DNA of 24,771 bases from a virus. Lineage: Duplodnaviria > Heunggongvirae > Uroviricota > Caudoviricetes. Numbering within the stretch: position 1 is the stretch's first letter; every line of letters begins with the position of its first letter. The stretch is taken from IMG/VR virus record IMGVR_UViG_2547132278_000006; one strand, written 5' to 3'. Shown in pieces: positions 5,855-22,018 of this stretch. A program made the position numbers and the translations under genes. The notes under the pieces are model-generated. The model worked only from the letters and a program-made list of their open reading frames with translations. It was not told the origin of the DNA and ran no database searches.

Positions 5855-5877
5855 GTGTTTTTCCTTTTTCTTTTTTG

Positions 5878-5955
5878 GTGCGTTTAAACAAGTTGTTATC
5901 TTATGTGTTTAAACAAGGCTTACAAATCAAAGAGAAGGTGGGGATATCCCCCACC
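5878..5955 (-). promoter_or_regulatory. nrdA-nrdB intercistronic element: two 14-bp direct repeats with a palindromic core, plus a GC-rich palindrome just after the nrdA stop
   Basis: TGCGTTTAAACAAG (5879-5892) and TGTGTTTAAACAAG (5904-5917), both containing the palindrome GTTTAAAC; GGTGGGGATATCCCCCACC at 5937-5955 lies 6 nt downstream of the nrdA stop. Confidence 0.35.
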
Positions 5956-5960
5956 ATATG

Positions 5961-8276
5961 TCAGATTTTGCAGGCTCCGTCGCACTCATCTTCTGGCTCG
6001 ACGGCTACAGCTTGCGCCAGTGGATTCTGCGGTTCGTCGTCATCACGCTTTCCTGCACCATCTCTGGTGTTGTGGTAGTAAAGCGTTTTAACTCCCATCT
6101 TGTAGGCGAGAAGCAAATCTGACAGTAGCGTCATCATTGGGACTTTATCGCCTTCAAAGCGAGAAGGGTCATAGTTGGTATTGGCCGAAATAGCCTGGTC
6201 AAAGAACTTCTGGATGATCGCCACCTTTGTCAGATAGCCGCGGTTGTCCGGCATATCCCACAGGTATTCATACTGTTCCTTCAGTTTTTCAAACTCAGGC
6301 ACGACCATCTTGACGATGCCGTCCTTAGAAGATTTCACTGACACCGGGCCACGAGGCGGTTCGATGCCGTTGGTGGAATTAGTGATCTGGCTGGAAGTCT
6401 CGCATGGCATTTGTGCCGTCAGTGTGGAGTTGCGAAGGCCGTATTTTGCAATACGTTCACGCAGTTCTTCCCACGGCATCTTTAACTCAAAGTTTGTTTC
6501 GCCACTTTCGTCTAATGAAGAACGGTAATGGTCGATCGGCAACTGACCAATTGCGTATTTGGTCTGCTCAAACCAGTCACACTCACCTTTTGCTTCGGCA
6601 AGTCGGCAGCTGGCATCAAGAAGGTAATACTGGATAGCTTCGAACGTTTCATGCACCAGTTTATTGCCAGCGGTATCAGAATAACGAACGCCATTCTTTG
6701 CCAGGTAATAAGCAAAGTTGGTTACACCAATTCCCAAGCTACGACGAGCTTTGGCAGGCACTTCGGCTGCCTCCATCGGATAGTCTTGATAATCCAGTAA
6801 CGAATCCAGTGCAGCAACGGCATAGAACGCCACCTCTTTAAGAGACTCCAGTGAACGGATGGCTCCGAGGTTAAAAGCGGATAAAGTGCATAGCGCGATC
6901 TCACCGTTCGGGTCGTCGGTAAATGCCAGTGGACGGGTGGGTAGGGTGATCTCCATACACAGGTTTGACTGGCGGACAGGTGCAAGAGCAGGAATGAAAG
7001 CGCCATGCTCATTAATATGATCGACGTTCGCAATATAAATTCGGCCCGTGGACGCTCGTTCCTGCATCAGAGATGAGAACAGCTCAATGGCAGGTACTGA
7101 CTTCTTGCGAATTGAATCATCGGCTTCGTATTTATGGTACAGCTTTTCAAACAGCTCCTGGTCTGTGAAGAAGGCTTCGTACATATCAGGCACATCATGC
7201 GGGCTGAACAGAGTGATGTTCTCGCTTCTGACGAGTCGACGGTACATTAGACGGTTACTCATGACGCCGTAATCAAGATGGCGAACGCGGTTTTCATCAA
7301 TACCACGGTTATTTTTCACCACCAGCAGACTTTCAACTTCAAGATGCCAGATCGGGTAAAACGCTGTTGCTGCGCCACCACGAACACCACCTTGCGAACA
7401 AGATTTAACAGCCGTCTGGAAATGCTTCAGGAATGGAATAACTCCGGTATGGGTGGCTTCACCATTGCGGATCTCGCTGCCCAGCGCACGGATACGGCCA
7501 AAACCAATACCAATTCCAGCACGACGTGAAACGTAGTCGATAATTGCGGCTGAAGCTGCACTAATCCCTTTCAGACTATCGCCAGACTCAATCAGCACAC
7601 AACTGGAGAACTGACGGGTTGGAGTACGGACGCCGGCCATGATTGGTGTGGGCAGAGACAGTTTGAACGTACTTGTAACGTCATAGAAACCTTTGACCAT
7701 CTCCATACGTGTTTTGCCAGCGCAGTCGTCTTCCCAATTCTGGAACAGACACATGCCTACCAGCATATAGATATGTTGCGGCCCCTCATGAATCTCACCA
7801 GTAACACGGTTTTGAACGAGGTATTTGCTTTGCAACTGCACCGTAGCTGCATAGCCAAAAAGATCGTCACGTTTCGGCTTAATGTAATTGCCGAGTTCTT
7901 CGATCTCTTCAAACGAATAATGTGTCAGCAAATCCTTGTCATAAACGCCCTTGTTAACGTTCTTGACAATGTGTTGGTAGAAGTTCGGATAGTCGTAACG
8001 ACCGAAGGCATCTTTGCGGATTTTAAAAATGTTCAGGCGGGCAGCCACCTGTGAGTAATTTGGTGCTTCTGGTGAGATCAAATCAGCGGCAGATTTAACC
8101 AAAGCCTCATGCAACTGGCTGGTGGTAATCCCATCAAAAATGCTGGCCGCAGCTCCCATTGCTACAGCGGATGCGCTTACACCACGAATGCCTTCTACGC
8201 CATACATTACGACGCGGTTGTATTTTTCTTCGGATAACGGCTCTGTTTGGCCGTTACGTTTTACGATGCTTATCAT
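5961..8276 (-). CDS. nrdA: ribonucleotide reductase class Ia large (alpha) subunit
   Basis: 771 aa; long stretches match recalled E. coli NrdA (YLVQNRVTGEI, LPTPIMAGVRTPTRQFSSCVLIE, CSQGGVRGGAAT, NRVRHLDYG, RQSNLCMEI, C-terminal ...CDGACKI). Confidence 0.95.
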   Translation of the reverse strand: MISIVKRNGQTEPLSEEKYNRVVMYGVEGIRGVSASAVAMGAAASIFDGITTSQLHEALVKSAADLISPEAPNYSQVAARLNIFKIRKDAFGRYDYPNFYQHIVKNVNKGVYDKDLLTHYSFEEIEELGNYIKPKRDDLFGYAATVQLQSKYLVQNRVTGEIHEGPQHIYMLVGMCLFQNWEDDCAGKTRMEMVKGFYDVTSTFKLSLPTPIMAGVRTPTRQFSSCVLIESGDSLKGISAASAAIIDYVSRRAGIGIGFGRIRALGSEIRNGEATHTGVIPFLKHFQTAVKSCSQGGVRGGAATAFYPIWHLEVESLLVVKNNRGIDENRVRHLDYGVMSNRLMYRRLVRSENITLFSPHDVPDMYEAFFTDQELFEKLYHKYEADDSIRKKSVPAIELFSSLMQERASTGRIYIANVDHINEHGAFIPALAPVRQSNLCMEITLPTRPLAFTDDPNGEIALCTLSAFNLGAIRSLESLKEVAFYAVAALDSLLDYQDYPMEAAEVPAKARRSLGIGVTNFAYYLAKNGVRYSDTAGNKLVHETFEAIQYYLLDASCRLAEAKGECDWFEQTKYAIGQLPIDHYRSSLDESGETNFELKMPWEELRERIAKYGLRNSTLTAQMPCETSSQITNSTNGIEPPRGPVSVKSSKDGIVKMVVPEFEKLKEQYEYLWDMPDNRGYLTKVAIIQKFFDQAISANTNYDPSRFEGDKVPMMTLLSDLLLAYKMGVKTLYYHNTRDGAGKRDDDEPQNPLAQAVAVEPEDECDGACKI

Positions 8277-8349
8277 GTATCACCAAATAAAGAGGGCCAC
8301 TAAATATAGTGGCCCATGTTAATAGATAAGCACTTACCTATCAATGAAA

Positions 8350-8919
8350 TCAAATGAGAGACTTAAGAACATCGCGCACCTGGCGGAACTGATCTGTTTG
8401 CATACCGGTATGGATGGCAGCCACCGCATCAGCCAAATGTTCGTTTTTGTTCACGAGAACATCCTGTCCAGATTGCTTACGACGCAGCCACGGTGCTTTA
8501 GGGTGTTTTTTCGTAGCCCACTGGATAATCTCTTCTTTCGATGTAGTAAGTTTATTGCCGACAAAATGCTTGATTTCGTTTGGAGTAACCTGGATCAATG
8601 GCTTATCCACACACGCAAGTACACCGATACAAATACCGTAAGACGTCTGCGAACGAGAGTTTTGGCTCCCAACCGGTAGCTCACAAAAAACCATATTTGC
8701 CTTATCAATGATTGGCTTCGCAACACGCCATATTTCACTGGCTCGGCGCAGATCGTCACTGTTCACACGAACGGTCTTTTTGTTACTCCCCGCTTTAGTC
8801 TCAACAAGAGTAAGGCCGTGAATCTCAAGTTCGTCCGTCTCAAGGTCTAAAGTGCCCACAGCAAGCCCAAAGTTGCTCATTGAGGGATCAACACCAACTA
8901 CGCTGATTTTTTTACTCAT
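8350..8919 (-). CDS. RuvC-like Holliday junction resolvase
   Basis: N-terminal ISVVGVDPSMSNFGLAV (RuvC ILGIDPG...GYGV pattern), mid FCELP (catalytic Glu region), C-terminal LADAVAAIHTG (RuvC DAADALAIAITH pattern). Confidence 0.6.
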   Translation of the reverse strand: MSKKISVVGVDPSMSNFGLAVGTLDLETDELEIHGLTLVETKAGSNKKTVRVNSDDLRRASEIWRVAKPIIDKANMVFCELPVGSQNSRSQTSYGICIGVLACVDKPLIQVTPNEIKHFVGNKLTTSKEEIIQWATKKHPKAPWLRRKQSGQDVLVNKNEHLADAVAAIHTGMQTDQFRQVRDVLKSLI

Positions 8920-8928
8920 ATAGTCTCC

Positions 8929-9672
8929 TTACCATGTTCCCCATATAGGGTTTTCCAATAATCTCGCCTCCAACGAATTGGCTACTATTGCCGTTTGCAA
9001 CGTTGGTTGGGGATAGTTTGCAAAGTCTGAATACTCATTTTCCTGCGTGACACGTTTATCTGCGGCATGTTTAACACCACTTGCTATGAAATGACGCATG
9101 ATGCCCAACAGCCTCCGACTGTCTGCACTATCGTTTGCTAAAACATGAGGGAGCTGAAGTTCGATTTCTACCATTTCTCCATACTTACCAACAAACTGTA
9201 GTTTGTCCGCACTGTACTTTTTATCCCTCCTTTGGATAAGGAAACCAGTAAAAGCATCACCTGGCGATGCCAAACTATCCACCCGCTTATTGGCAAGTCG
9301 AATAAGGTTCGTGAAAGCCATACAGTGATGCGCACCCATTCCCCCAAAGAACCCTTCGCTATTAATGTTAAGATCTTCAGTTTCATGGGATGCAATAAAC
9401 CCAGGCCCGACGTTGGGAAGATATCCCCCCTCAACAAAAGGATTAATCAGGATCGGCGCAATACATCCAGGTGGTAGTGATTTCAAACTTTGCATCAATG
9501 GCGTCTCGGATATTAGACCAAGCAACGCGGCGAATTGTACTCCGTCAATATTGTTGCTGCCCCACAGAATACGTGGAGCCGCACCATTGGAAGTATGCCC
9601 ATTGATCAGTTTTATCGACTGCATCACTGCAAATACCTGCAAAAACTGCGAGCGACTTAATTTAAACGACAT
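8929..9672 (-). CDS. hypothetical protein (247 aa)
   Basis: Intact ORF between the resolvase and Rad50-like genes; its start overlaps the rad50-like stop by 11 nt; no confident motif. Confidence 0.55.
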   Translation of the reverse strand: MSFKLSRSQFLQVFAVMQSIKLINGHTSNGAAPRILWGSNNIDGVQFAALLGLISETPLMQSLKSLPPGCIAPILINPFVEGGYLPNVGPGFIASHETEDLNINSEGFFGGMGAHHCMAFTNLIRLANKRVDSLASPGDAFTGFLIQRRDKKYSADKLQFVGKYGEMVEIELQLPHVLANDSADSRRLLGIMRHFIASGVKHAADKRVTQENEYSDFANYPQPTLQTAIVANSLEARLLENPIWGTW

Positions 9673-11578
9673 AGCTGCGCCCCTCTTTAACTTCCAGCGT
9701 AATAGTTTCCCGGAACCATGACTTCATCTCTTTATGGGAGATAATCAGCACAGTACCTCGCTCGCGAGCTTTGGACTCCAGAATACCCATGAGGCGTTCA
9801 AGACCGGCTGTATCGAGTGCATCGTCAATTTCGTCGCCGATAAACAAATCGATGTTTTTACTCGCCCGGTTGCTAACCAGATCCTGCAATGCCAAAGAAC
9901 ACGCAATGCGAACCTTCCGCTTCTCACCACCAGAGAGGGTCTGGAACGACTTACTTGAACCTTTCTTCTGCACACTAATGTTGAATTTGTCGCGATACTC
10001 ACCTTTTTTAGTGACATCCATCGTCGACCACTCAGCAGTAATATTCCCGTCAGACAACGTATTGAGATACTCGGCAGTGCGTGTATTCAGGAAAGGCGTA
10101 ACAGACGTCAAAATATGAGAACGCACCCCGGCAGGAGAGTAGACCTGACGAGCTTTTTCCAATAGCAACGTTTGTTCCTGAATAGCCTTCAACTCATCTT
10201 TTAAGGACTTGAAGGTAGACTTACTGGATACCAGGTTATCTTCGTGTCTGGCGATAAGAGCAATAAACGGATTAATCTCTTTTGATATACGATCGACCTC
10301 AGTACGAGCACGAGTCACAAGAGACTCAATAGCAACAACCTCCTTCTCACGATGACGCAAAGATGAGAGTTGTTTCGTAAGCTCTTCAATCCGGGCAATG
10401 ATAGCCGTTACATCAGGTGTCGTTTTAACAAGGGCAGACTCAATGCTTAACGCTTTCTCAAGATTCGTTTTGTGTTTAGCCATTGCCTCTGCAAGTGTCT
10501 TCGCCTGACCAATTTCCTGACGTGCTTGTTCAATGAAATTCTCCTTCACCGTTGATAGATCTTCTTCGCAGTAGGCTTTGCCACAAGTAGGGCATGGTGA
10601 TCCCACTTTAGTACCAACCTCTTCTGCTTTGGTCTTAAAATTACGCGCGCGGTTCATTGCATCAGCCTGACTATTTTCTGTAGCTTTGATGCTTGCCCGA
10701 ATATCAGTTATCGCACCACGAACTTTGAGCAACTTGGCGTCATGTTCTTCTTTTGAGGCTAACTTTTTGCGCTCACTTTCGATTGCCTTCTCGGTATCAC
10801 GGATCTGTTCGGGAAGAGTGCGGATCTCAAGTTCAACTTCCGTTAACTCAACTTCGGCACTGGCCAGCCCAGCCAGGGCATCGTCATAACGTTTAGAACG
10901 CTCTTGCTCCCATGATTCAGAGGAGGCTTTCGCTGACTCAATTTCTGACTGTGTTGCCTCAATGGTCGAGATTGTCGACTCCAATTTGGTTTTAACCACA
11001 TCCATACGTGCGGCAGCTGCATTAGCTCGCTCACGAGCAATAGCGTAGGCGCGTGTCAGTCTGTCAACGCCAGCGGCTTCTTCTACGATGGTTTTGAGGT
11101 TTTTGTCGGACATTCCAGGTAAATCTGGCATAGCTTCTTGGCTCGCATAGATGGAAGCCATGAAAACCTCTTTAGATGCACCGATCAGACGCTCGACGAA
11201 CTCTTGCGTCAGCGCATCTTTGCCTTTCGTCATATCGCCGTCTTCACCACGAACGATAAGCCGATTTTTGAACTCTTTGTGTTTACGGTGACGAATGATC
11301 GCATATCTCTTGCCTTCATCCTCGATGGTTACTGCAACACGACAGTTCTTTTCATGGTCGGTAGACAACACATCGTCACCCTTCACACCATGAGCTGTTT
11401 CGCCATAAAGACACCACATCAGGCTATTCATTAGCGTTGACTTTCCAGAGCCATTACTTGATGCGGAACTATCATCACTATTAACACCCTGAATGAGCAC
11501 TAAACCACGCTGATCTAACTCGACCTCCGCGCTGGCGATAGCCATAAAATTCTCAACCTGGAGCTTTAAAAACTTCAT
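9662..11578 (-). CDS. Rad50/SbcC-like recombination ATPase (T4 gp46-like)
   Basis: Walker A NGSGKSTLMNSL, long coiled-coil region, zinc-hook CPTCG, ABC signature LSGGEKRKV, Walker B/D-loop LFIGDEIDDALD. Confidence 0.85.
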   Translation of the reverse strand: MKFLKLQVENFMAIASAEVELDQRGLVLIQGVNSDDSSASSNGSGKSTLMNSLMWCLYGETAHGVKGDDVLSTDHEKNCRVAVTIEDEGKRYAIIRHRKHKEFKNRLIVRGEDGDMTKGKDALTQEFVERLIGASKEVFMASIYASQEAMPDLPGMSDKNLKTIVEEAAGVDRLTRAYAIARERANAAAARMDVVKTKLESTISTIEATQSEIESAKASSESWEQERSKRYDDALAGLASAEVELTEVELEIRTLPEQIRDTEKAIESERKKLASKEEHDAKLLKVRGAITDIRASIKATENSQADAMNRARNFKTKAEEVGTKVGSPCPTCGKAYCEEDLSTVKENFIEQARQEIGQAKTLAEAMAKHKTNLEKALSIESALVKTTPDVTAIIARIEELTKQLSSLRHREKEVVAIESLVTRARTEVDRISKEINPFIALIARHEDNLVSSKSTFKSLKDELKAIQEQTLLLEKARQVYSPAGVRSHILTSVTPFLNTRTAEYLNTLSDGNITAEWSTMDVTKKGEYRDKFNISVQKKGSSKSFQTLSGGEKRKVRIACSLALQDLVSNRASKNIDLFIGDEIDDALDTAGLERLMGILESKARERGTVLIISHKEMKSWFRETITLEVKEGRSYVV

Positions 11579-11807
11579 ATAACACCTTTGATACCGTGTG
11601 TTAGCTTTTGACCTTCTTTCAATCTGAACTCCGTATGCGCCGGGAAGGATCTGCGCCTCAATACGCCTTTTCTGGTTAACCTTCCAAGATAAAACGCTAC
11701 GGGATTTCCTTGTGGCGGGTAGGGCTTGTGAAACATCACCGTCTGGCCTCGTTCAAGTCTTTTCATCGTGATGGCAAAGTCTCGAAAGCTCCCATAACGA
11801 CTTTGCC

Positions 11808-12893
11808 TCACACAGCCTCCGAACTCTCCGCTTCGGTGAGGATTTCCTGACACAAAATATCCAACTTGCTTAGATCAAATCCGCCGTCAGTATCGTGGAC
11901 AATCTTGCAATAAGCAGATACCGACTCTCCCAGGCTATCGATTTTGCTGGTTTCCGTTGTGCTTGCTGTCCCTTCCATCATTGATGACTTACGGATGAAG
12001 TTGCACACGACACCTTTTGCACCCATTGTTTTGAGGATGTTCTGGTACTTAATGCCTTCTTCATCGTTCTCAATTACGGCGCGGAAACGCACGTAGTTGC
12101 CGCGAATTTGGTCATCGGCAACATAATCTTCCAGGTTAATGAATTTAGGCGCACTGGTTTCGTAGTGACTGAAACTGCCGTCCGGGTTTACGATCATGTA
12201 ACCAGCCAGAGATCCAACATCTCCCCAATTTTGATGGGTCAGCGCACCGACACTGATAACTCCAGGAATGACCTCTTTATGGTTGTGGTAATGCCCACTA
12301 AGCACGAGACGAAAGCCGATATCCTTTAACTCCTGCGCATCGATACCGACGTCAGGCATTGTTGGAATGGCTTTGTTAATGGATGTATGGATAACAACGT
12401 CATGATTATCACCTTCTACGCTCTTACGTAATGCTTTCAGATCGCAGATAAGCTCTGCATGATTGTTACGCCAGCTAATCAGGTGGACAGTCACATCACC
12501 AATTTTTATTGAGTGTGGGCGTTTGCCACATACGATTACCACGCCGATAGAACTCAGCGATGCTGCTGCGTTGGCGCTATATACTGAATCGTTGGTTTCA
12601 AGATCGTGATTACCGGCCAGCATTACTACTGTCAGATCAAGCTCGTTGATAATCCACTTGTACGTTTCAGTTACGTAATGCAAAACAGAAGGGGACACAG
12701 TTCCTCGGACGTGAAATGTATCACCGGCAACCAACATGTACTTACAACCGGCCTTCTTCATGGCGATGGCTGCTTCTTTCGTTGCTTCCAACTGTATTTC
12801 AAGTCTGGAGTTAAGCCCCTCTGCGTTCGTCGTGGAGAACGCATCCCATTTGTGGTAGTGGCAGTCAGAAATGACGCCGTATGGCAAAGTCAT
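11808..12893 (-). CDS. Mre11/SbcD-like nuclease (calcineurin-like phosphoesterase; T4 gp47-like)
   Basis: Phosphoesterase motifs ISDCHYH, AGDTFH, GNHD, GHYH in canonical order; immediately upstream of the Rad50-like gene. Confidence 0.85.
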   Translation of the reverse strand: MTLPYGVISDCHYHKWDAFSTTNAEGLNSRLEIQLEATKEAAIAMKKAGCKYMLVAGDTFHVRGTVSPSVLHYVTETYKWIINELDLTVVMLAGNHDLETNDSVYSANAAASLSSIGVVIVCGKRPHSIKIGDVTVHLISWRNNHAELICDLKALRKSVEGDNHDVVIHTSINKAIPTMPDVGIDAQELKDIGFRLVLSGHYHNHKEVIPGVISVGALTHQNWGDVGSLAGYMIVNPDGSFSHYETSAPKFINLEDYVADDQIRGNYVRFRAVIENDEEGIKYQNILKTMGAKGVVCNFIRKSSMMEGTASTTETSKIDSLGESVSAYCKIVHDTDGGFDLSKLDILCQEILTEAESSEAV

Positions 12894-13147
12894 GTGTTTT
12901 TCCTTTGTGGTTATTTTGATACAAATTTTAAGAGCAATGAGGAGGTAAACAACTATGCATAACGGTATGTTAGGAATGAAACGAGCGTCTTAATATACAA
13001 AATTTATAAGTAAGTATATACCTATTTATTGTGGCGCAACTTTGCTTGTCTGTATGACTAAAAATAAGACAGGATCACTGTAGAACGCTATGAGAGCTAT
13101 TTTGAGGAGGCGTAGATTCTATCTACGCCAATATACGATCTGGAGGG

Positions 13148-13951: not shown

Positions 13952-13991
13952 GCTGTAAGCCGCGCCACGCCTGGTCTAAAGTCATGTTCAT

Positions 13992-14093
13992 GTATGCTGT
14001 CAGCGGTAATTGATAGTCTGTCAGCGGTTCACCGTATGCTGCCAACTGTTTTTGGTATTCTGTCAGCGGCAAATCAAGTATGCTGTCAGCGGT
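13992..14093 (+). repeat. origin iterons: 5 direct repeats of a 16-bp unit (GTATGCTGTCAGCGGT) at 21-23 bp spacing
   Basis: Units start at 13992 (perfect), 14013, 14034 (degenerate), 14055 and 14078 (perfect); phased at about 2 helical turns; they end 20 bp before the repA ATG, so they overlap the repA promoter region. Confidence 0.8.
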
Positions 14094-14113
14094 TGAATGA
14101 CAAAGGTGTCCAC

Positions 14114-15208
14114 ATGTCCACAAAAAATAAAAAAGGTAAAAATAACAAAGAAGTAGAAGATAACATCGACAACTTTGAAGAAGGTTCCCTTGAATTGTAC
14201 ACAGGGGAACTTGTCCCTAATAGCAACAATACAGTCCAACCAATTGCGTTGATGCGACTGGGGTTGTTCGTCCCCACGCTTAAGGGAACAAAATACAGTA
14301 AACGTAACAAGCCAAATGAGATCGATGCTTCAAAGGAGCTTGTCCAGCTCGAAGTAGCCCGTTCTGAAGGCTATTCCGATATCAAGATAACCGGTCCTCG
14401 TCTCGACATGGATCATGATTTCAAAACGTGGGTGGGCGTTGTGCGTTCGCTGGCAGAATACGGCGAACCTAACGGTCGTGTCGAGTTAAGCATCACGAAA
14501 TTTGCTAAGTTTTGTGGCTATCCATCGTCACAGATCCGCAAAACACTCCGCGACCGGCTTACAAACAGTCTTTTGAAGATCATGCGTACAACTCTGTCTT
14601 TCCAGAGAACGTATGAAGAAAAGAACGTCGACGGCTCTAACAAGATCTCGCTTCTGATGGTGCACCTCATCAATAGCGTGGACTACAACGAGCAGAAAGA
14701 TACGGTGGTGTTCTATGCAGAACCGAAGCTGGCCGAACTATATCGCTTTGACCATAAGGTTCTTTTGCAGTTAAAGGTTATCAATAAGCTACCACGCAAA
14801 GAAACAGCACAGGCTCTGTACACCTTCATCGAAAGTCTTCCAACCAAGCCTGCGCCGGTATCGCTTGCTCGATTGCGTGCGCGACTCAATTTGAGTAGCA
14901 GGAATGTAAGCTCGCAGAATCAGACTATACGTAACGGCTTAAAAGCTCTCCAAGATTTGGGCTATCTCGAATACAGCGAGATTAAGCGAGGGCGGTCGAT
15001 CTATATCCAGATTCACAGCCGTAATCCAAAACTTAAAGTCGCACCGCCAAAACCTGAAGACATCGAACCCAAAAAACCAGATGAGAAAGCCGGGGAAATT
15101 GATGCTAAACAGAACATTATCAACAAGATAACTGAACTTTCGCAGAATTTGACGCCTGAAAATATCAAGATGATTGAGATCCTTTCCAATAGTCTCAAAC
15201 TGCTTTGA
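14114..15208 (+). CDS. repA: iteron-binding replication initiator (RepA-like), 365 aa
   Basis: The only substantial plus-strand gene; flanked upstream by 5 iterons and downstream by 12. Start taken at ATG 14114 (MSTKNKKGK...); the ORF track's 5' extension to 13994 runs through the iterons. Assignment is mainly contextual (P1/F-type organisation). Confidence 0.7.
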   Translation: MSTKNKKGKNNKEVEDNIDNFEEGSLELYTGELVPNSNNTVQPIALMRLGLFVPTLKGTKYSKRNKPNEIDASKELVQLEVARSEGYSDIKITGPRLDMDHDFKTWVGVVRSLAEYGEPNGRVELSITKFAKFCGYPSSQIRKTLRDRLTNSLLKIMRTTLSFQRTYEEKNVDGSNKISLLMVHLINSVDYNEQKDTVVFYAEPKLAELYRFDHKVLLQLKVINKLPRKETAQALYTFIESLPTKPAPVSLARLRARLNLSSRNVSSQNQTIRNGLKALQDLGYLEYSEIKRGRSIYIQIHSRNPKLKVAPPKPEDIEPKKPDEKAGEIDAKQNIINKITELSQNLTPENIKMIEILSNSLKLL

Positions 15209-15740
15209 TATGCTGTCAGCGGTGAAATGTATGCTATCAGCGGCTATTTTTCTGAAATGTATGCTGTGAACGGTTAAAGATATGCTACCAGCGGTATAGT
15301 GAGATGAACGTATGCTGTGAGCGGTAAATCATCTATCACCACTCAATGCTCTGTCATACCTCCCCAGTGGTTACTAACCTCGAAGAGTGCATTCCATATA
15401 GGTTTGCGCTCACTAACATTCTATTGCTATTGCGCTGATTGCTTGTAGTGAAAGGCATTTATTGCCTGCTGCTCCCTGATAGAACGTATGCTGTCAGCGG
15501 TGTTTTATTGAGGAATTTTTGTTTGGATATGCTATCAGCGGTAATTAATGGTATATGTCAGACCTTCGTATGCTGCCAGCGGTAATTTTGTTCTGGTTAT
15601 ACCCATACCGGTACACATTATTCATGCAATGTCTTAAGTATGCTGCCAGCGGTAAAAAATCGAGTAAAGTATGCTGTGAGCGGTGATATAGACTCTCGAT
15701 ATGCTATCAGCGGTAGTTGATTGTGTATGCTGTCAGCGGT
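15209..15740 (+). repeat. incA-like copy-control array: 12 direct iterons of the same 16-bp unit
   Basis: Units start at 15209, 15230, 15260, 15281, 15311, 15486, 15527, 15568, 15638, 15669, 15699 and 15725, all same orientation; most spacings are about 21, 30-31 or 41 bp (roughly 2, 3 and 4 helical turns), with 26 and 70 bp as exceptions; 0-3 mismatches to consensus; a 160-bp iteron-free spacer at 15327-15485. Confidence 0.8.
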
Positions 15741-15757
15741 GACGACTATGAAATATG

Positions 15758-15780
15758 ACTGCGGAACGAGCCGCAGTCAG
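15758..15780. terminator. stem-loop (GACTGCGG-AACGAG-CCGCAGTC) at the end of the iteron array
   Basis: 8-bp perfect inverted repeat followed on the plus strand by TTTGCATTT; lies between the iterons and the convergent CDS 15788..16000. Confidence 0.35.
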
Positions 15781-15787
15781 TTTGCAT

Positions 15788-16000
15788 TTAGTGTATTTTC
15801 TTTAACAGACCCCAAAGTGTTCCGGCTTTTGTAGTCAGTTTTCCTGTTTCTGGATCGTACATACGCCATTCACGCCGCTGGTGGACGATATACCCATCTT
15901 CACGTTCCAGACGCTCAAGAATGCCAGGCTGCTTGAAACCCTTAGCACGCCAGTAGCCGCTTGTTTTCTCGATTTCCAGACCTGCCAGTGTTAATGCCAT
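15788..16000 (-). CDS. hypothetical small protein (70 aa)
   Basis: ORF whose start overlaps the upstream gene's stop (ATGA at 16000); no motif. Confidence 0.5.
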   Translation of the reverse strand: MALTLAGLEIEKTSGYWRAKGFKQPGILERLEREDGYIVHQRREWRMYDPETGKLTTKAGTLWGLLKKIH

Positions 16001-16335
16001 TACCCAACCTCCTTGCAGTCATCGAAAAGGTAGCTTTGCTGAGAAGCGTGAACGCCATAAAAGCCCTTGTATTTGTTGTATACGAAGTGGTCTTCTCCGA
16101 CGCCGGTTAATTTGCCATTACGATTTGTGAGATATGGGGATGACAACACTCGATCGTCACGCACAATATAGAACTGGTCGCCGCTGTCTACGACCATCGC
16201 TCCATATGGTGCTTTTATGACGTCGGTAAGAGCGCCATTCTTAACGTCGGCTACAGACATTTCACACTGATAAACAGTGGTGTCGGCCACAACGATCGAA
16301 GAAAGAAACAACAGCGCGAATGGGATGGTCTTCAT
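16000..16335 (-). CDS. small secreted protein with N-terminal signal peptide (111 aa)
   Basis: MKTIPFALLFLSSIVVADTT has n/h/c-region character; two Cys (mature N-terminus and C-terminus) could form a disulfide. Confidence 0.6.
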   Translation of the reverse strand: MKTIPFALLFLSSIVVADTTVYQCEMSVADVKNGALTDVIKAPYGAMVVDSGDQFYIVRDDRVLSSPYLTNRNGKLTGVGEDHFVYNKYKGFYGVHASQQSYLFDDCKEVG

Positions 16336-16511
16336 GCTGCCACCTCTTTGATTACATCAAATGCTGAATTAAATACGAGCACGATAGCCAAAGCGTTTAT
16401 GACTACGTCGTGCACCGGGGAAAAGACTTTACGAATGACACCAGTGAAAATGCAGTCGATGACAAAAGCTATTGAAACGATGAGTAACAAGTATTCAATA
16501 AAAATCTTCAT
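16332..16511 (-). CDS. small hydrophobic membrane protein (59 aa), not in the supplied ORF track
   Basis: Hand translation: MKIFIEYLLLIVSIAFVIDCIFTGVIRKVFSPVHDVVINALAIVLVFNSAFDVIKEVAA; two hydrophobic segments; its stop overlaps the next gene's ATG (ATGA at 16332-16335). No obvious SD. Confidence 0.4.
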   Translation of the reverse strand: MKIFIEYLLLIVSIAFVIDCIFTGVIRKVFSPVHDVVINALAIVLVFNSAFDVIKEVAA

Positions 16512-16550
16512 GATAGGTAGATACTAACTTATATAAACTTTACTGTAAAC

Positions 16551-16826
16551 TCACTCAAAAGTGCTGATGCTTAAAATACGCTCAAGATGTTCAGCATCTT
16601 CATTACTGATTTGTTGAGTCTCTTCTACGTACCAACAGTTGCCGTTATGCCAACAAACACCATCATCATCAACCATCACTGAATCAGCGTCATGACCTGT
16701 ATATTCAACAAGAGTACGCTGGATCAGCGTGTCAGTTTCTTCATCGTTAAGGCCATCGACTTTGACCATAAAAAGCGGAAACACGTCATAGACAGTGCTG
16801 GTAACGATTCGAACTAAAACTCTCAT
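16551..16826 (-). CDS. small strongly acidic protein (91 aa)
   Basis: About 18 Asp/Glu against about 5 basic residues; preceded by the conserved ACCACAAAAGGAAAAACAC-ATG initiation cassette. Confidence 0.6.
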   Translation of the reverse strand: MRVLVRIVTSTVYDVFPLFMVKVDGLNDEETDTLIQRTLVEYTGHDADSVMVDDDGVCWHNGNCWYVEETQQISNEDAEHLERILSISTFE

Positions 16827-16881
16827 GTGTTTTTCCTTTTGTGGTTAGTGTTTACTTATTTTGTTAGTTATGAATAGGCGA

Positions 16882-17307
16882 TCAATCTTCTTGGTTAGGG
16901 AAAAACTGTTCAATAACTCTGTCAACGGCTGTGTCTATATGGAGTAGATGCCACACAACCATATCTTTGCTTCCCATGCCTTGTGTGAATATCACGTCAT
17001 ACTTACGCCATGCGCAGTGGAACCAATATGCTGAGTCATCAATTGGTAAATCCTCTCCCGCCTCTTTGAAGTATTTCAGCAGCATTGCCTGCTCTGCCGT
17101 TGGCGTTGGACCTATTTCCTGAGCGTACATACGGATGAATCGCTGCCAGTCTGTCTCGTCGGGGGTTGGATCTGGTGGGGTCATTTCTGCGATAGCGTTT
17201 CGTAGCTGATGCGCCCAATCAGGTTCAGGAAAGCCTTTTGCTACTTCATCATCAATAACATCCAGAGCCACGTTTGCGGCATCGTAGAGTTTCTTAATAA
17301 CTGTCAT
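16882..17307 (-). CDS. hypothetical acidic protein (141 aa)
   Basis: Intact ORF rich in Asp/Glu and Pro; no motif recognised. Confidence 0.55.
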   Translation of the reverse strand: MTVIKKLYDAANVALDVIDDEVAKGFPEPDWAHQLRNAIAEMTPPDPTPDETDWQRFIRMYAQEIGPTPTAEQAMLLKYFKEAGEDLPIDDSAYWFHCAWRKYDVIFTQGMGSKDMVVWHLLHIDTAVDRVIEQFFPNQED

Positions 17308-17356
17308 GTTTTCTTAGCCTTTTAAACAAATTGTTTTCTTAATAAGATAATTGCGA

Positions 17357-17384
17357 TAAAAAAGGCGTCCAACTGGACGCCTGA
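17357..17384 (-). terminator. rho-independent terminator
   Basis: Minus strand: AGGCGTCC-AGTT-GGACGCCT followed by TTTTTTATC; 15 nt downstream of the SPFH gene stop. Confidence 0.6.
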
Positions 17385-17398
17385 ACTTTTAAGGGGAG

Positions 17399-18229
17399 TT
17401 ATTTCACTGTAATGAAAGGAGTGTTAGCCCCTTGAGTCATGTACTGCGGTAACTGGCCATTCCATTTATTGATGGCTTCCAGCTCCATAACGTTCGGGTT
17501 TTGACGCAGAGCTTCACCGCGCAGACGAATGGCGTCTGCTTCTGCTTGCGCACGAGCACGGATAGCATCAGCTTCACCATTAGCCTGTTCACGTAGCATA
17601 TTCGCCTCAGCTTTACGCTGTTCAACTTCCTGCTGGCGTTGCAGAGTACGCTGGTTAGCCGTTACTTTGGCGTTGATAGATTCAATGACGGTTTTTGGGT
17701 AATCAGGCTTTCCAACCCATGACAGGCTCAGTACCTCAATACCAACCGGAGACATCTCTTTCTGAATGTCTTTCAGTGCGTTGTCCAGCAATTGCGCCTT
17801 ACCACCGTCGATAAATGAGTCAGTGGTCATACGGCTGGCCAAACGGTTTAGAGAGTCGGCAATTTTCTGACGCAGATCTGATTCGGTGATATCGTCTACG
17901 CCTTTGCGATAGGTCTGGAACACCGTCGTTACCTTGTCACGATTAACCAGATACGCAACGCCAATTTTGTGACCAATAGCAGTACCGTCACTCATCTGGA
18001 ATGTGAACGGCTCGTCGTAGGTCTTCATTTGTTTGAAGGTCGGGAATACGTAAAGTTCGGTGTTAAGACCTGTCCATTGGCGACCAACGCCAACCACTTC
18101 ACCGATCCCTTTGTCTTCACCTAATTTGTTTACTTTGATGCCAACGTATCCAGGCTCCACGCGATCACAGCCAGTAAGACCCATTGTGCAAATAGCCGCC
18201 AGAGCAACTGCAAGTAAACCTTTCTTCAT
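17399..18229 (-). CDS. SPFH/band-7 (prohibitin/HflC-like) lipoprotein
   Basis: Signal peptide with lipobox MKKGLLAVALAAICTMGLTGC; SPFH-like core and an Ala/Glu/Arg/Gln-rich coiled-coil tail (QRQQEVEQRKAEANMLREQANGEADAIRARAQAEADAIRLRGEAL) typical of HflK/C-type proteins. Confidence 0.75.
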   Translation of the reverse strand: MKKGLLAVALAAICTMGLTGCDRVEPGYVGIKVNKLGEDKGIGEVVGVGRQWTGLNTELYVFPTFKQMKTYDEPFTFQMSDGTAIGHKIGVAYLVNRDKVTTVFQTYRKGVDDITESDLRQKIADSLNRLASRMTTDSFIDGGKAQLLDNALKDIQKEMSPVGIEVLSLSWVGKPDYPKTVIESINAKVTANQRTLQRQQEVEQRKAEANMLREQANGEADAIRARAQAEADAIRLRGEALRQNPNVMELEAINKWNGQLPQYMTQGANTPFITVK

Positions 18230-18232
18230 TAC

Positions 18233-18433
18233 TTATTTCCCCTTTGCTTTGATTAATGAGTTGATAAACTTACGACCAGCAATAAGACCGATTACAGGAG
18301 CACCAAAACCAACGATAACTCCAAACATGACGGCTAAATCACTCTTGGTAGAAATCAGCGACGGAACCAGTAAACCGTAGATGAGAGCCACTGAAACGCC
18401 TGTGGCTACTGCCAATAGATAGATTTTGATCAT
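18233..18433 (-). CDS. small two-TM membrane protein (66 aa), cotranscribed upstream partner of the SPFH lipoprotein
   Basis: Two hydrophobic helices; stop 3 nt before the SPFH start; conserved initiation cassette (CCACATAGGAAAACAC-ATG) upstream. Confidence 0.6.
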   Translation of the reverse strand: MIKIYLLAVATGVSVALIYGLLVPSLISTKSDLAVMFGVIVGFGAPVIGLIAGRKFINSLIKAKGK

Positions 18434-18462
18434 GTGTTTTCCTATGTGGTTGTTATGCGAAA

Positions 18463-18491
18463 ATAATAAGTAAGTACTTATATATTTTCAA
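18463..18491 (-). promoter_or_regulatory. sigma70-like promoter for the small-TM/SPFH operon
   Basis: Minus strand TTGAAA-N17-TATTAT (5/6 and 5/6 to consensus), about 30 nt upstream of the ATG at 18433; the spacer holds the near-palindrome ATATATAAGTACTTACT. Confidence 0.45.
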
Positions 18492-18492
18492 G

Positions 18493-18522
18493 AGATAAAA
18501 AAGGCGTCCTGTGGACGCCTTG
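18493..18522 (-). terminator. rho-independent terminator
   Basis: Minus strand: AGGCGTCC-ACA-GGACGCCT followed by TTTTTTATC; 4 nt downstream of the recA-like stop; same stem sequence as the terminator at 17357. Confidence 0.6.
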
Positions 18523-18525
18523 TGT

Positions 18526-19599
18526 TTACTCTTCTACTGACTCGGTGGGGTTGTCTTTTGCTCTTCGGTCGTCGATTGCCTGCAAAGCCGCAATGATTTC
18601 AGCCAGTGGCTTCTCCCGATACATCTCGACGATCTGCGATTTGGTGTATTTCTTGTCACCAATTTCAACTCGCCCGCTGGCGTTCTTTGGCAGGTATCCT
18701 TCTTCCAGCATGTACTCGACGAGCGATTCGATAACGTCGAGGCCACGAGTAGGATCGAAGTAGAATTTCCAGGTGCATTTGCCATACGGTGGTGCAACTT
18801 TGTTTTTGATGCATTCTGCGCCTACGTCCTGGCCGATCTTCTCTTTACCATCCTTCATCACCGATGCACCAAGACGGATACGTACAGAAGCGTAGAACTT
18901 CGGTGAATCTCCACCTGGCGACGTAGTAGGGTCGCCAAACATTACACCGATTTTTGTGCGAACCTGATTCAAGAAGATGATGCAGGCGTTGTATTTGCGT
19001 GCCCACAAAGCCAGAGTAGGGAAGTTCGCACTTGTCGCACGAGCCAGTGCCGTATTGTCGTTCATGTTTAGCTGATCTTTGTCTTTGGCAGTGCCTTCAG
19101 CCATCTTTTCGAACTTCTCGGCTTTGGAGTTCGGAACCATAGACGCAAGTGAGTCAGCCACGATACAGATAGGTGCTGATTCAGGGATAAGCTCTTCATC
19201 ACGTACCAATTTAAGTATTGTGCCGATCAACTCTACAGAGTCTTCGAAGGTGTCAGGCTGCTTGTATACCCACTGACCGTCATCCTCATCTGCGTTCAGG
19301 CCATTGGCTACAGCCAGGCCAACGTCAAAACTGTTTTCATGATCGAGGAATACCGCCAGACCATCTTGTTTTTGAGCGGAGATCATCGCTGCTGTTGCAA
19401 GGAACGTTTTCCCTGCACTTGGAGGACCGAATACTTCGACGATACGACCACATGGGAAGCCGCCATCGTAACGACCAGAAATAGCTTTGTTTAACGGTGG
19501 AAAGCCTGTATCAATCCAATGAGTTACTTTCTGAATTTCGTCGTTGCTACCGATTTTCTTTTTCAGAGCAAGTGCCAGTGCGGATTTTCCTTTTGCCAT
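18526..19599 (-). CDS. recA: RecA-family recombinase
   Basis: Walker A GRIVEVFGPPSAGKTFLA; FLNQVRTKIGVMFGDPTTSPGGDSPKFYASVRIRLG is near-identical in pattern to recalled E. coli RecA ([36 protein letters not shown]). Confidence 0.9.
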   Translation of the reverse strand: MAKGKSALALALKKKIGSNDEIQKVTHWIDTGFPPLNKAISGRYDGGFPCGRIVEVFGPPSAGKTFLATAAMISAQKQDGLAVFLDHENSFDVGLAVANGLNADEDDGQWVYKQPDTFEDSVELIGTILKLVRDEELIPESAPICIVADSLASMVPNSKAEKFEKMAEGTAKDKDQLNMNDNTALARATSANFPTLALWARKYNACIIFLNQVRTKIGVMFGDPTTSPGGDSPKFYASVRIRLGASVMKDGKEKIGQDVGAECIKNKVAPPYGKCTWKFYFDPTRGLDVIESLVEYMLEEGYLPKNASGRVEIGDKKYTKSQIVEMYREKPLAEIIAALQAIDDRRAKDNPTESVEE

Positions 19600-19601
19600 G
19601 A

Positions 19602-19874
19602 TCAGGCTCCTTTTGTTTCGTTGATTCGTTTTAAAGCGGCGGATTCATCGAATACAATCGCATCGTGGTTAAGGAGTCTGGATACACGAGCGAGGATTTT
19701 TACGACCTGCTCGCTGACTAATCCAAACTCGCGATCTGTCGCTTTCATTCCGGCAGCGCCTAGAATTGACGGCAGTGCGATGACAGCGTACTCACCGTGA
19801 TAAAAGACAATCTCTTTTGCCAGTTGGGCAGGGGTGGTTGTAGCGCCATTGATAATCGATTTAAGCATTAGCAA
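19602..19874 (-). CDS. hypothetical protein (90 aa)
   Basis: ORF between the FEN and recA-like genes, overlapping the FEN 3' end by 7 nt; no motif. Confidence 0.45.
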   Translation of the reverse strand: MLMLKSIINGATTTPAQLAKEIVFYHGEYAVIALPSILGAAGMKATDREFGLVSEQVVKILARVSRLLNHDAIVFDESAALKRINETKGA

Positions 19875-20812
19875 TACCTTTCGAATGGAAGAACAAACAC
19901 TTCAAGGTCTTCAAGGAACGAACGGAAATTCAGCTCGTAGCACAGTTGCTCGAATGCTTTCACGTCACGATTGCCTTTGATTGTTTCGATTTCGGTAGGC
20001 GGAAACTTCGTCTCAATCAGGTTCATTAGCGTGATGTTTCTCTTGAACGCTTCGAGCATTCGACAGCCTGTTTTCTCGTTGAAGGCATTCTTCGCTAGTT
20101 TGTTGAAGGCGGTCTTATGGCGTCCTTTGTCAACCACGATTGAGCCGTCGTTGATGCCGCGTACCATCGTTGCGACACTTCCCCATTCATGCAGCAGCTC
20201 TTTCGCACCGCCAGCACCAATGCCACCAACACCGCTAATATTGTCCGATTTATCGCCTTGTAATGCTTTTGCTTCCAAAAATGCGCGAGGAGTAGCGAAT
20301 CCTGTCAGCTCCGCAAATTGCTCAAAATTAACCTGCTTGTTTTTGGCGTCTTCGCGCAGGCTTACCCAGCTTACGTTTTCGCGAACTAACTGAAGCCAGT
20401 CGCTATCGCCTGTTAACAGATAGATGTGTTCAACGATTGGCTGCGGTGCAATGCTGGCTACCAGCAGCCCGGCCAGATCATCCGCTTCTGCATCTTTTGC
20501 AATGAGTTGGGTAACTCCAAGCGCGGTCATCATTTTGAGGATGTATGGCTTCTGGATAGCAAAGCCTTCCTTCATCTTTTTCATATCAGGATCGTCGTCG
20601 CGATTTGCTTTGTAGTCCGGGTAAAAGTCGCGACGCTTGTCACTAAATCCATCCCAAAGAATCATAGGTCGGGCATGGAGGATGGAGGCATAACGACGGA
20701 CGTTCTTAACAAAGCCGAAAGCAGCCTGTACTTCCATTTCGCCGTTGTGCAATTTGTCAGATTGTTGGTGGTAATAACCCAGGCTATTGCCATCTACGAA
20801 GAGATAATTCAC
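19868..20812 (-). CDS. flap endonuclease / 5'-3' exonuclease (T5 D15 / T4 RNase H family)
   Basis: YLFVDGNSLGY, AKDAEADDLAGLL, TGDSDWLQLV and H3TH-like GDKSDNISGVGGIGAGGAKELL. Start is uncertain: the ORF track starts at GTG 20863, but that places a strong terminator hairpin inside codons 2-9; GTG at 20812 follows the hairpin and has GGAAGGAA upstream, so it is preferred here. Confidence 0.85.
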   Translation of the reverse strand: MNYLFVDGNSLGYYHQQSDKLHNGEMEVQAAFGFVKNVRRYASILHARPMILWDGFSDKRRDFYPDYKANRDDDPDMKKMKEGFAIQKPYILKMMTALGVTQLIAKDAEADDLAGLLVASIAPQPIVEHIYLLTGDSDWLQLVRENVSWVSLREDAKNKQVNFEQFAELTGFATPRAFLEAKALQGDKSDNISGVGGIGAGGAKELLHEWGSVATMVRGINDGSIVVDKGRHKTAFNKLAKNAFNEKTGCRMLEAFKRNITLMNLIETKFPPTEIETIKGNRDVKAFEQLCYELNFRSFLEDLEVFVLPFERYC

Positions 20813-20825
20813 CGGTACATTCCTT

Positions 20826-20858
20826 CCAAAAAGTAAGGCGTCCGTAGACGCCTTACTG
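20826..20858 (-). terminator. rho-independent terminator downstream of the SSB gene
   Basis: Minus strand: GTAAGGCGTC-TACG-GACGCCTTAC followed by TTTTTGG; 15 nt after the SSB stop; shares the AAGGCGTC/GACGCCTT stem core with the terminators at 17357 and 18493. Confidence 0.55.
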
Positions 20859-20872
20859 GTCACGTAATGGGA

Positions 20873-21901
20873 TTACAGAGAGTCCAGCTCTCTCAGTAGG
20901 TCATCCAGACCTTCATCTTCCGTCGCAGATGCGGCTGCTACAGATGTCGCTGCGACTGCTTCAGACTCTTTGACTGATACTGCAACGGCAGCGGGACTTG
21001 CTTCTGGTTTAAATTCAGTTTCAACGGCACGGAGGATTTCTTCATCAACCAGACTGGTTGGTTCAGAAGCTGGGGTATGAGCGGTAGCTACAGCAGTCGC
21101 ACCCTCCGTATGACCAGTGACAGAGCCAAATCCAGGTAGTGCCGCAGCCGATGTTTTCGCGGTTGAGGAAATTGCTGGTGCAGATGCTGCGGCAGTTGGT
21201 GCAGCGATGCCAATCAGACGACCCATAGTGCGAACTGTCGACAGAAGACGAGTTTCATCAGCTTGATTTGCGTATGCGATCAGATCATGCTGGGTATTCC
21301 AGAATTTATCTTCGATATCGCCTTTGTAGACTTTACGCTTAGGCGAGACGTCATATTTGGTATCGCGACCAGAGCCAGTACGTTTAATCAGGAATGCGTA
21401 GCCTTCCTCTTTGCTCAGTGGATTGCCGATATCATCAGCGATGTCTTCGGTGATTGCTTTGCAGATATCATCGAATACAGTAGACGGCAGCTCGATTAAC
21501 TGGCATTTCTCAGCATCTGCGAAATCCTCACGAGCAGAAAGAATGCCGTTGACCAGGTAGCGAGGAGTGGCACGCATTTGACCGATGCGTTCTTCCATTG
21601 CTTTGTTACCCTTGTGACGAGCGCGACCTTCCATCACCATTTCGCATAGCTGACAAGCGCGACCGTGAGTATGTTGCTCACAAATATAAGCGTTGGTTGC
21701 TTCTTTACCTTCCTCGTTCTGATACTTAACGTAGTGCATACCGAAAGTCTGGAAGAACTTACCGTTTGGGTCGTCTTTATTCGGGAAGATGCGGATATAG
21801 TTGACGCCGTCTTTTAAGCGAGTCAGATCAACGTTGTTACCACGTTTGGCGGCAATGTCTTCACGAGTTTTGTTAAGCAAATCAAGTAATGTCTTAGACA
21901 T
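20873..21901 (-). CDS. gp32-like single-stranded DNA-binding protein
   Basis: IRIFPNKDD matches T4 gp32 IRFLPSKND; Zn-ligand pattern H...C...C-x2-C (CEQHTHGRACQLCEM); Ala/Thr/Ser-rich low-complexity linker; acidic C-terminal tail (EDEGLDDLLRELDSL, compare gp32 DDIDNLLNEI). Confidence 0.75.
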   Translation of the reverse strand: MSKTLLDLLNKTREDIAAKRGNNVDLTRLKDGVNYIRIFPNKDDPNGKFFQTFGMHYVKYQNEEGKEATNAYICEQHTHGRACQLCEMVMEGRARHKGNKAMEERIGQMRATPRYLVNGILSAREDFADAEKCQLIELPSTVFDDICKAITEDIADDIGNPLSKEEGYAFLIKRTGSGRDTKYDVSPKRKVYKGDIEDKFWNTQHDLIAYANQADETRLLSTVRTMGRLIGIAAPTAAASAPAISSTAKTSAAALPGFGSVTGHTEGATAVATAHTPASEPTSLVDEEILRAVETEFKPEASPAAVAVSVKESEAVAATSVAAASATEDEGLDDLLRELDSL

Positions 21902-22018
21902 GTGTTTCTCCTTGTTGTGATTTGGCCGATGGCGCTATGCGCGTTGGGCTTTCGTTCATTCGTGGCTCTTTCGAGCTGTTAAATGATAGATCAGTACTTA
22001 CTTATTATCTATCAAAAA

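Follow-up and report, generated by a model that had tools for sequence, protein, structure and literature searches.

The DNA described here is a stretch of 24,771 nucleotides (nt) from IMG/VR virus record IMGVR_UViG_2547132278_000006; "the window" means this stretch at its full length. It belongs to an SSU5-like phage-plasmid. Over bases 327-24485 its identity is 96.7% to Escherichia phage Cyrano (pLF82), 99.3% to Escherichia phage CMS-2020a and 77.7% to Salmonella phage SSU5. The annotated genes are on the minus strand, with the sole exception of repA on the plus strand. They encode a partial DNA polymerase III alpha subunit (Pol III alpha), a UvsY-like protein, a gp32-like single-stranded DNA-binding protein (SSB), an exonuclease, a UvsX/RecA-like recombinase, a membrane protein of 66 amino acids (aa), an SPFH lipoprotein, SbcD, SbcC, RuvC, NrdA, NrdB, MazG, ThyX, DHFR, several small unknown proteins and others. 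Our subject is a short leader sequence that runs into the ATG of five genes, all on the minus strand: nrdB (ATG at 5854), sbcD (mre11-like, 12893), a gene for a 91-aa protein (16826), the 66-aa membrane-protein gene (18433) and the gp32-like gene (21901). Table 1 collects these leaders with the features around them.

A first-pass annotation, made from the letters alone, had pointed to a near-identical cassette before these five genes, and the counts agree. The 9-mer AAACACATG is present exactly five times in the window, once at each of these starts, with zero copies elsewhere in the window or on its opposite strand. The expectation is 0.32, and five copies were reached in 0 of 100 shuffles. 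A longer form, AGGARAAACACATG, matches exactly at 5852-5865 (nrdB), 12891-12904 (sbcD), 16824-16837 (91-aa gene) and 21899-21912 (gp32-like), which is four matches against 0.40 expected, a number also reached in 0 of 100 shuffles; the fifth 9-mer is at 18431-18439, before the membrane-protein gene. The gene identities named in that annotation were confirmed with PHROGs, and the weaker variant it saw before the UvsY-like gene (ATG at 22450) is present as AAAGGAAAGCAC-ATG. Two further claims stand only in part. An identical leader of more than 14 nt had been attributed to all five genes; the 9-mer is indeed common to the five, but an identical 14-mer is common to only three, the gp32-like gene differing by one A-to-G change and the membrane-protein gene by one A fewer. 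An upstream CCACAA part had also been described as shared; it is found as (A)ACCACA(A/T)A at sbcD, the 91-aa gene and the membrane-protein gene, but gp32 has the altered form ATCACAACA, and nrdB (AAGAAAAAGG) lacks this part. A palindrome across the ATG was rejected: the second codons differ, and ACATGT alone is found, in 5 of 12 copies.

Table 1. Leaders, putative promoters and neighbouring elements in the window.
Feature	Position	Strand	Remark
nrdB leader AAGAAAAAGGAAAAACAC + ATG	5852..5872	-	core motif, without the ACCACA part; NrdB identity by PHROGs
Directional palindromic box AAGATAACAACTTGTTTAAAC	5882..5902	-	upstream of the nrdB leader
sbcD (mre11-like) leader AACCACAAAGGAAAAACAC + ATG	12891..12912	-	fullest form of the motif
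sbcD promoter, putative sigma-70-type: TTGTTT, 16 nt, TAAAAT	12925..12952	-	hexamers conserved, spacer diverged in relatives
91-aa gene leader AACCACAAAAGGAAAAACAC + ATG	16824..16846	-	sbcD leader with one inserted A
91-aa gene promoter, weak, putative: TTGATC, 16 nt, CAAAAT	16858..16885	-	by inspection only
DUF7238 gene (141 aa), degenerate copy AAAAGGCTAAGAAAAC + ATG	17305..17323	-	
Second copy of the box, AAGAAAACAATTTGTTTAAAAGG	17318..17340	-	upstream of the DUF7238 gene
66-aa membrane-protein gene leader AACCACATAGGAAAACAC + ATG	18431..18451	-	core motif AAACACATG
Membrane-protein gene promoter, putative sigma-70-type: TTGAAA, 17 nt, TATTAT	18463..18491	-	10/12 consensus
Palindrome ATAAGTACTTACTTAT	18466-18481	-	in spacer and -10 of the membrane-protein promoter
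Terminator-like hairpin	18521-18501		just upstream of the membrane-protein promoter
gp32-like SSB leader AATCACAACAAGGAGAAACAC + ATG	21899..21922	-	AGGARAAACACATG match
UvsY-like gene leader, weaker variant GTAAAAAGGAAAGCAC + ATG	22448..22466	-	lineage-specific

The motif extends well beyond the window. For comparison we used the whole Cyrano and SSU5 genomes and 80 SSU5-like contigs from IMG/VR. The gene-sense strand of Cyrano has 11 copies of AAACACATG, where 0.6 would be expected, and the antisense strand has none. Ten of the 11 copies are at the starts of open reading frames (ORFs), nine of them annotated and one at a primase ATG 66 nt upstream of the annotated start, and at all of these AAACAC abuts the ATG. 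This is the genome-wide scan that the first-pass annotation had proposed, naming a similar frequency of the motif away from starts as what would refute it; the frequency there is not similar. The shuffles and the genome-wide counts together rule out a chance origin. Close variants precede the Cyrano genes for helicase, cobS, Pol III alpha, a TciA-like protein, Ead, Eae and a 189-aa protein. CAC occupies positions -3 to -1 in 12 of 123 Cyrano genes, where single-position frequencies predict 3.4. The primase copy reads ACCACAAAAGAAAAACACATG, without GGA, and is located at 33534 in Cyrano and 35837 in SSU5, before an annotated GTG start. The ATG of the Cyrano copy lies in the primase reading frame; that of the SSU5 copy begins an ORF of 23 codons, the stop of which overlaps the GTG (GTGA). 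Either the start of primase is mis-annotated or the upstream ATG begins a coupled leader peptide.

The motif genes form one class. They are first cistrons of non-structural operons, mostly concerned with replication or recombination; an intergenic gap of at least 43 nt precedes every one of them, and the structural and lysis modules hold none. Terminator-like hairpins are found in the window upstream of the nrdB, membrane-protein, DUF7238 and UvsY leaders. The putative promoters would place transcription starts 23-27 nt before the ATG at sbcD (about 24-27 nt), the 91-aa gene and the membrane-protein gene. If these starts hold, the motif is about the whole 5' untranslated region (5'UTR) at the three genes and would occupy most of it at sbcD; the 5'UTR would be longer at gp32 and nrdB. 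A promoter for a leaderless mRNA inside the motif was rejected by inspection, there being no -10-like hexamer at the right distance. The Cyrano genes published as expressed in the LF82 lysogen include no motif gene (PMC9928086).

The orthologous upstream regions in the 80 contigs show a regular pattern: the -35 and -10 hexamers are kept, their spacers have diverged, and then comes a conserved leader. Mean pairwise identity over positions -25 to -1 is 0.97 for sbcD (among 24 distinct relatives), 0.94 for gp32 and 0.80 for both the 91-aa gene and the membrane-protein gene, compared with 0.55, 0.73, 0.63 and 0.58, respectively, at codon third positions. Because they are more conserved than third positions, the leaders are under purifying selection and functional. 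What is conserved is less than the full string. The 14-nt identity is confined to the E. coli lineage and is lost in SSU5 and in Klebsiella relatives; the same genes in SSU5 have GGAAAAGACAC, GGAGAAAACAC, GGGAAACAC, GGAGAAATAC and GGAAAAAACAC before their ATGs. The leader of the 91-aa gene reads GGAGGAGCAC, GGATGAGCAC or GGATAAGCAG in other lineages, with relatives outside the E. coli lineage having ACCAACAAGGAGAAGACAC and similar forms, and the gp32-like leader in most relatives ends in GGAGAAATAC-ATG. AGGAAA(A)CACATG of the membrane-protein gene is unchanged in 47 loci, the UvsY upstream region is highly variable (45 distinct versions), and the DUF7238 gene has AAAGGAAAACAC-ATG in some relatives. 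Across genes and lineages, the run between GGA and CAC is 3 to 6 A, with G or T tolerated, and the upstream ACA is 0-3 nt from AGGA. The parts retained family-wide are, in order, C/A-rich sequence containing ACA, AAGGA, a spacer of 5-8 nt rich in purines, and CAC (sometimes TAC) against the ATG. Directly upstream of the gp32-like leader, at 21924-21949 on the minus strand, there is also a small GC hairpin, GCGC-N3-GCGC with GCC/GGC flanks, whose stem is kept in relatives and whose loop varies. A hairpin followed by an unstructured leader is an arrangement that recalls T4 gene 32.

A strong Shine-Dalgarno (SD) sequence is not what sets these leaders apart. The SD:anti-SD energy is -5.0 kcal/mol in motif genes and -4.5 kcal/mol in other first cistrons (p=0.8), which rules out a stronger SD as the explanation. 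With equal SD energy, AAACAC abutting the ATG and an excess of CAC-ATG, the earlier contention that the sharing exceeds what an SD requires is upheld. Structure and composition do separate the classes, in comparisons that are partly circular, the class being defined by an A/C-rich motif: the minimum free energy of the 80-nt initiation regions, which take in 40 nt of coding sequence, is -8.3 kcal/mol with the motif and -13.4 kcal/mol without (p=0.001), accessibility of the initiation region is 0.64 against 0.51 (p=0.0006), leaders are 77% A+C against 51%, and ACA occurs 2.2 times per leader against 0.7 (p=2e-5). A and C make up 95% of the spacer (positions -7 to -1) in motif genes, compared with about 50% in every other class of gene. 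By eye, the spacers of early motif genes hold only A and C, and several late ribosome-binding sites (RBSs) in the Cyrano structural module (1-28000) are AAGGA with a T-rich spacer (e.g., aaaggaatttttATG, acaaggattttttgaacATG). Averaged over all late genes, spacers are 27% T against 29% T in other non-motif genes, which is no difference.

The strand specificity, the exact register with the ATG, the restriction to one gene class and the purifying selection point to a function at the level of translation. Our preferred reading, to which we give a probability of roughly 0.55, is that the leader is a short unstructured 5'UTR combining ACA-type enhancer modules with a moderate SD, and that its uniformity within the lineage came from homogenisation or convergence. 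Elements of this kind are established by experiment: C/A-rich elements near the SD enhance translation of Salmonella yifK, dppA and gltI, possibly via ribosomal protein S1, and at yifK and dppA the ACA motifs act with their exact position immaterial (Yang, Figueroa-Bossi & Bossi 2014, PMC3879156). Enhancer activity and a role of S1 in the present leaders are put forward by analogy with these mRNAs. The likeness covers an ACA-containing, G-poor sequence just upstream of the SD, a flexible position relative to SD and AUG, and occurrence in Enterobacteriaceae. All five window copies of AAACACATG and 10 of 11 in Cyrano are in the sense strand next to a start, as expected of a 5'UTR enhancer, and ACA is found in a G/U-poor, unstructured context, an agreement partly circular with the definition of the motif. 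The flexibility is seen in the A-run of 3-6 nt and in the 0-3 nt between ACA and AGGA; variation in length and sequence of the spacer without loss of SD or CAC-ATG fits position-flexible enhancer modules. The phage-plasmid leader differs from the Salmonella elements in being reused nearly verbatim at many genes of one mobile element, in having AAACAC fixed against the AUG, and in giving no indication of GcvB control.

The mechanism that we envisage is as follows. At the head of several early operons driven by sigma-70, the motif would make up nearly the whole short 5'UTR of the first gene; these operons are probably repressor-controlled and serve replication, recombination and nucleotide metabolism. 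The leader would consist of a C/A-rich stretch with ACA (ACCACAA), a moderate SD (AAGGA) at near-optimal spacing, and an A-rich spacer free of G and U whose CAC end lies directly on the AUG. A leader of such make-up should be unable to fold or to give false starts. As ACA modules raise initiation in enteric bacteria, probably by serving as a landing site for the 30S subunit (protein S1), the likely outcome would be uniformly efficient translation once the promoters are derepressed.

Several points weigh against this reading. Composition and low structure do not account for the choice of AAACAC, one of 64 A/C hexamers, or for its exact abutment to the ATG. The primase copy retains ACCACAAAAGAAAAACACATG without GGA, which hints at constraint on the whole string. 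The enhancer activity is carried over from other mRNAs, and the structure, composition and ACA comparisons have the circularity mentioned above.

The specificity of AAACAC, greater than composition demands, and the conservation of the primase copy without GGA are what one would expect of an operator, where a phage RNA-binding protein, either an analogue of T4 RegA or the gp32-like SSB, represses synthesis of the replisome and recombination proteins coordinately. In a broader form, a factor of the phage-plasmid or of the host with C/A-rich specificity would read ACCACA..AGGA..AAACAC-AUG throughout a regulon. The motif overlaps SD and AUG of several early mRNAs, as RegA operators do, and is conserved and specific in strand and register. 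The genes concerned (helicase, primase, Pol III alpha, SSB, SbcD, NrdB, UvsY) resemble the T4 targets of RegA and gp32, and the gp32-like gene itself has the motif, downstream of the conserved small hairpin. The resemblance to T4 extends to the setting: the phage has gp32-, UvsX-, UvsY- and gp46/47-like genes, and many of its early genes for replication or recombination have similar SD-spacer-AUG sequences. However, what these leaders share is C/A-rich, where the T4 sequence is A/U-rich, the GGA-to-CAC spacing varies from 3 to 6 nt, relatives tolerate G or T in the spacer, and in a per-genome tabulation the paralogous leaders did not co-vary lineage-wide, as they should if a binding protein evolved with them.

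Nor did a candidate reader of such an operator emerge. A Pfam scan that covered 20 proteins from the window and Cyrano, small or of unknown function, gave no RegA-like or other RNA-binding domain, only DUF7238, DUF2971, Phage_gp49_66 and a weak helix-turn-helix, with about 40 hypothetical Cyrano proteins outside the scan; the PHROG names of the window genes include no RegA-family repressor. A known RNA family is rejected as the identity of the leaders: Rfam covariance models at gathering score have no hit in the window, and elsewhere in Cyrano match only tRNAs and a cspA element. A phage-encoded antisense RNA is likewise rejected at the level scanned, no antisense copy with at least 11 of 14 matches being found on both Cyrano strands, a threshold that does not exclude short seeds. 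The suggestion in the first-pass annotation of a common translational-control or RNA-binding site thus goes unsupported, as the 14-nt identity dissolves among relatives and co-variation, a RegA-like protein, an Rfam match and an antisense partner were all absent from these searches. We regard an operator, whether read by a RegA analogue, the SSB or some other factor, as unlikely. If true, it would set the stoichiometry or timing of replisome and recombination proteins at the switch from plasmid maintenance to lytic growth, and the genes would form a regulon like that of RegA in a phage not of the T4 family.

That three to five copies are nearly identical is probably due to selection for one common optimum, to homogenisation within the genome, or to both. 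Within the lineage of the window, the leader of the 91-aa gene is one inserted A away from that of sbcD and at least six changes from its own SSU5 orthologue, which suggests homogenisation or convergence inside that lineage. It could be argued that the identity comes mainly from common descent or homogenisation of an ordinary RBS, through gene conversion or short-homology recombination at gene boundaries, and needs no further function. High uniformity is found in the E. coli lineage only, the element encodes its own recombination machinery, and A-rich strings CCACAnAAGAAAACA recur beside promoters elsewhere in the genome (for ARGA(R)AAAACA, 24 sense and 2 antisense). Against this, purifying selection on orthologous leaders is well above that on synonymous sites, and the family-wide pattern of ACA, AAGGA, purine spacer and CAC-ATG survives where the copies differ. 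Furthermore, the likeness between leaders stops sharply about 20 nt upstream, and the promoters are not shared. As the main cause, we think this doubtful. There is a partial parallel in the promoter-early stem-loops of T4-type phages, which are short regulatory cassettes repeated before many early genes, possibly homogenised by recombination. Here too, a short sequence is repeated before many early genes of one genome. Unlike the stem-loop cassettes, what is shared is a leader of about 20 nt with no stem-loop, the promoters differ, and the genes are core genes and not hyperplastic-region ORFs.

Host regulators are another candidate, in the form of CsrA acting at ACA..GGA, GcvB or a similar Hfq-dependent small RNA, or MazF cleavage at ACA. 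The CsrA consensus core is ACARGGA, and ACAAGGA, which fits it, occurs in the leaders of gp32 and several relatives. CsrA targets have at least two GGA, one typically in a hairpin loop, whereas these leaders of 23-27 nt have a single GGA and neither a second site nor a hairpin, and are predicted to be unstructured. C/A-rich elements containing ACA are known GcvB targets (PMC3879156), and the leaders are like them; CACAACA of the gp32 leader pairs contiguously with GcvB R1 at -19.2 kcal/mol. Over the whole class, though, the duplexes with E. coli GcvB R1 average -15.2 kcal/mol for motif leaders and -13.4 kcal/mol for other first cistrons, a difference that is not significant (p=0.06). Nothing ties CsrA, GcvB, an Hfq-dependent small RNA or MazF to this phage, and we consider control by any of them very unlikely.

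A further element of the early region is a dispersed palindromic box, AAGAAAACAAnTTGTTT, for which we found no description in the literature. Cyrano holds about 19 copies. At many early genes the box follows a GATAAT-like -10 hexamer by about 10 nt and precedes the ATG by 11-40 nt, and it is also found before terS and parA. A few reversed copies are further upstream, where the TTGTTT arm may act as a -35 hexamer. The box looks like a dispersed DNA operator of a prophage repressor, with a logic similar to that of P1 C1. The leader motif could then be a half-site of this box acting on DNA. Its left arm is alike: the leader sequence CCACATAGGAAAACAC is identical at 14 of 16 positions to box flank and left arm CCACATAAGAAAACAA (Cyrano ~93150-93170), many early genes have a box at a distance of about 10 nt after the -10 hexamer, and a box is present at four of the motif genes. 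But a palindromic operator has dyad symmetry and is independent of orientation, whereas the motif lacks dyad symmetry, has no second half-site after the ATG, where the sequence is unconserved, and appears in one orientation, never antisense and always at offset 0 from the ATG. Relatives keep SD and CAC-ATG but not GAAAACA. At nrdB, box and AAACACATG are conserved as separate islands; SSU5 retains the box, and the stretch between box and AAACACATG has diverged. Because of these separate islands and the constant offset of the leader, we treat leader and box as separate modules, the nrdB box probably being an operator distinct from the leader motif, and a half-site acting on DNA strikes us as highly improbable. 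What the two have in common is the A/C-rich style of the early transcribed region.

There is also a second recurring palindrome, ATAAGTAnnTACTTAT, at 18466-18481, 8322-8342 and 13006-13029 in the window and at many sites in Cyrano. It is found upstream of nrdA, portal, ThyX, Dam, ParB and other genes, and is probably a second operator family.

Returning to the reading as a C/A-rich enhancer with a moderate SD, comparison beyond the enterobacterial elements bears on its age. The virulent Pseudomonas phage nickie (35001-85000) shows synteny to SSU5-like elements over the segment from helicase to dnaQ, and its gp32-like SSB is about 30% identical to that of the window. Its first-cistron leaders are C/A-rich and share TCAAACAG..GAG, but not AAACAC-ATG. 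The general design is therefore old and host-independent, and the exact string is specific to the enterobacterial group. The -10 hexamers of nickie sit in GCGC-rich palindromes. A well-studied leader of similar appearance is that of T7 gene 10 (g10-L), a very strong initiation region in E. coli that holds the 'epsilon' element UUAACUUUA. In the T7 sequence, which we checked, ACCACAAC is near the 5' end of the transcript, followed by AAGGAG, ATATACAT and ATG, and the A-rich spacer ends in ACAT or ACAC before the ATG as here. The T7 leader differs in being 63 nt long, with a 5' hairpin and the epsilon element, transcribed by T7 RNA polymerase and occurring once. The resemblance is in short low-complexity sequence, and we claim no homology.

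The leader is thus most likely a reused high-efficiency RBS of a known type and not a new regulatory system; as it stands, it is a clear illustration of an already known principle, not of a new mechanism. Full-text searches found no literature on promoters, operators, leaders or regulatory motifs of SSU5, Cyrano or pHCM2-type elements, and gene regulation in SSU5-like phage-plasmids is essentially undescribed. These elements are common in clinical Enterobacteriaceae and can bear resistance genes. The arrangement suggests that their early genes follow a simple grammar, which runs from a sigma-70 promoter through a C/A-rich transcript start, an optional palindromic box, AAGGA and an A-rich spacer to CAC-ATG. 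Such a grammar can help to fix the annotation of start codons, as for primase, to predict operon heads and to supply compact strong RBSs.

Some other features of the element were noted in passing. On either side of repA there are iterons, GTATGCTGTCAGCGGT, at least 14 in all (window 13992-14101 and 15208-15748), as in a P1-type plasmid replicon. They are a different, unrelated sequence from the leader motif, which rules out an iteron or origin repeat as its identity. The ORF at 13994-15208 overlaps the left iterons, and therefore the true start of repA is probably further downstream. Window bases 1-326 match the IstB end of an insertion sequence of the IS100/IS21 family at 98-99% identity, with homology to the phage-plasmid starting at base 327. 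The UvsX/RecA-like gene encodes 357 aa in the window (18526-19599) and 779 aa in Cyrano (55065-57404); the Cyrano gene seems to have a large insertion that the window lacks and that may be an intein or a homing element. Finally, the Rfam cspA thermoregulator match in Cyrano (50542-50960, minus strand, 187.6 bits) is between Pol III alpha and hicB where no gene is annotated, which suggests an unannotated cspA-like gene.

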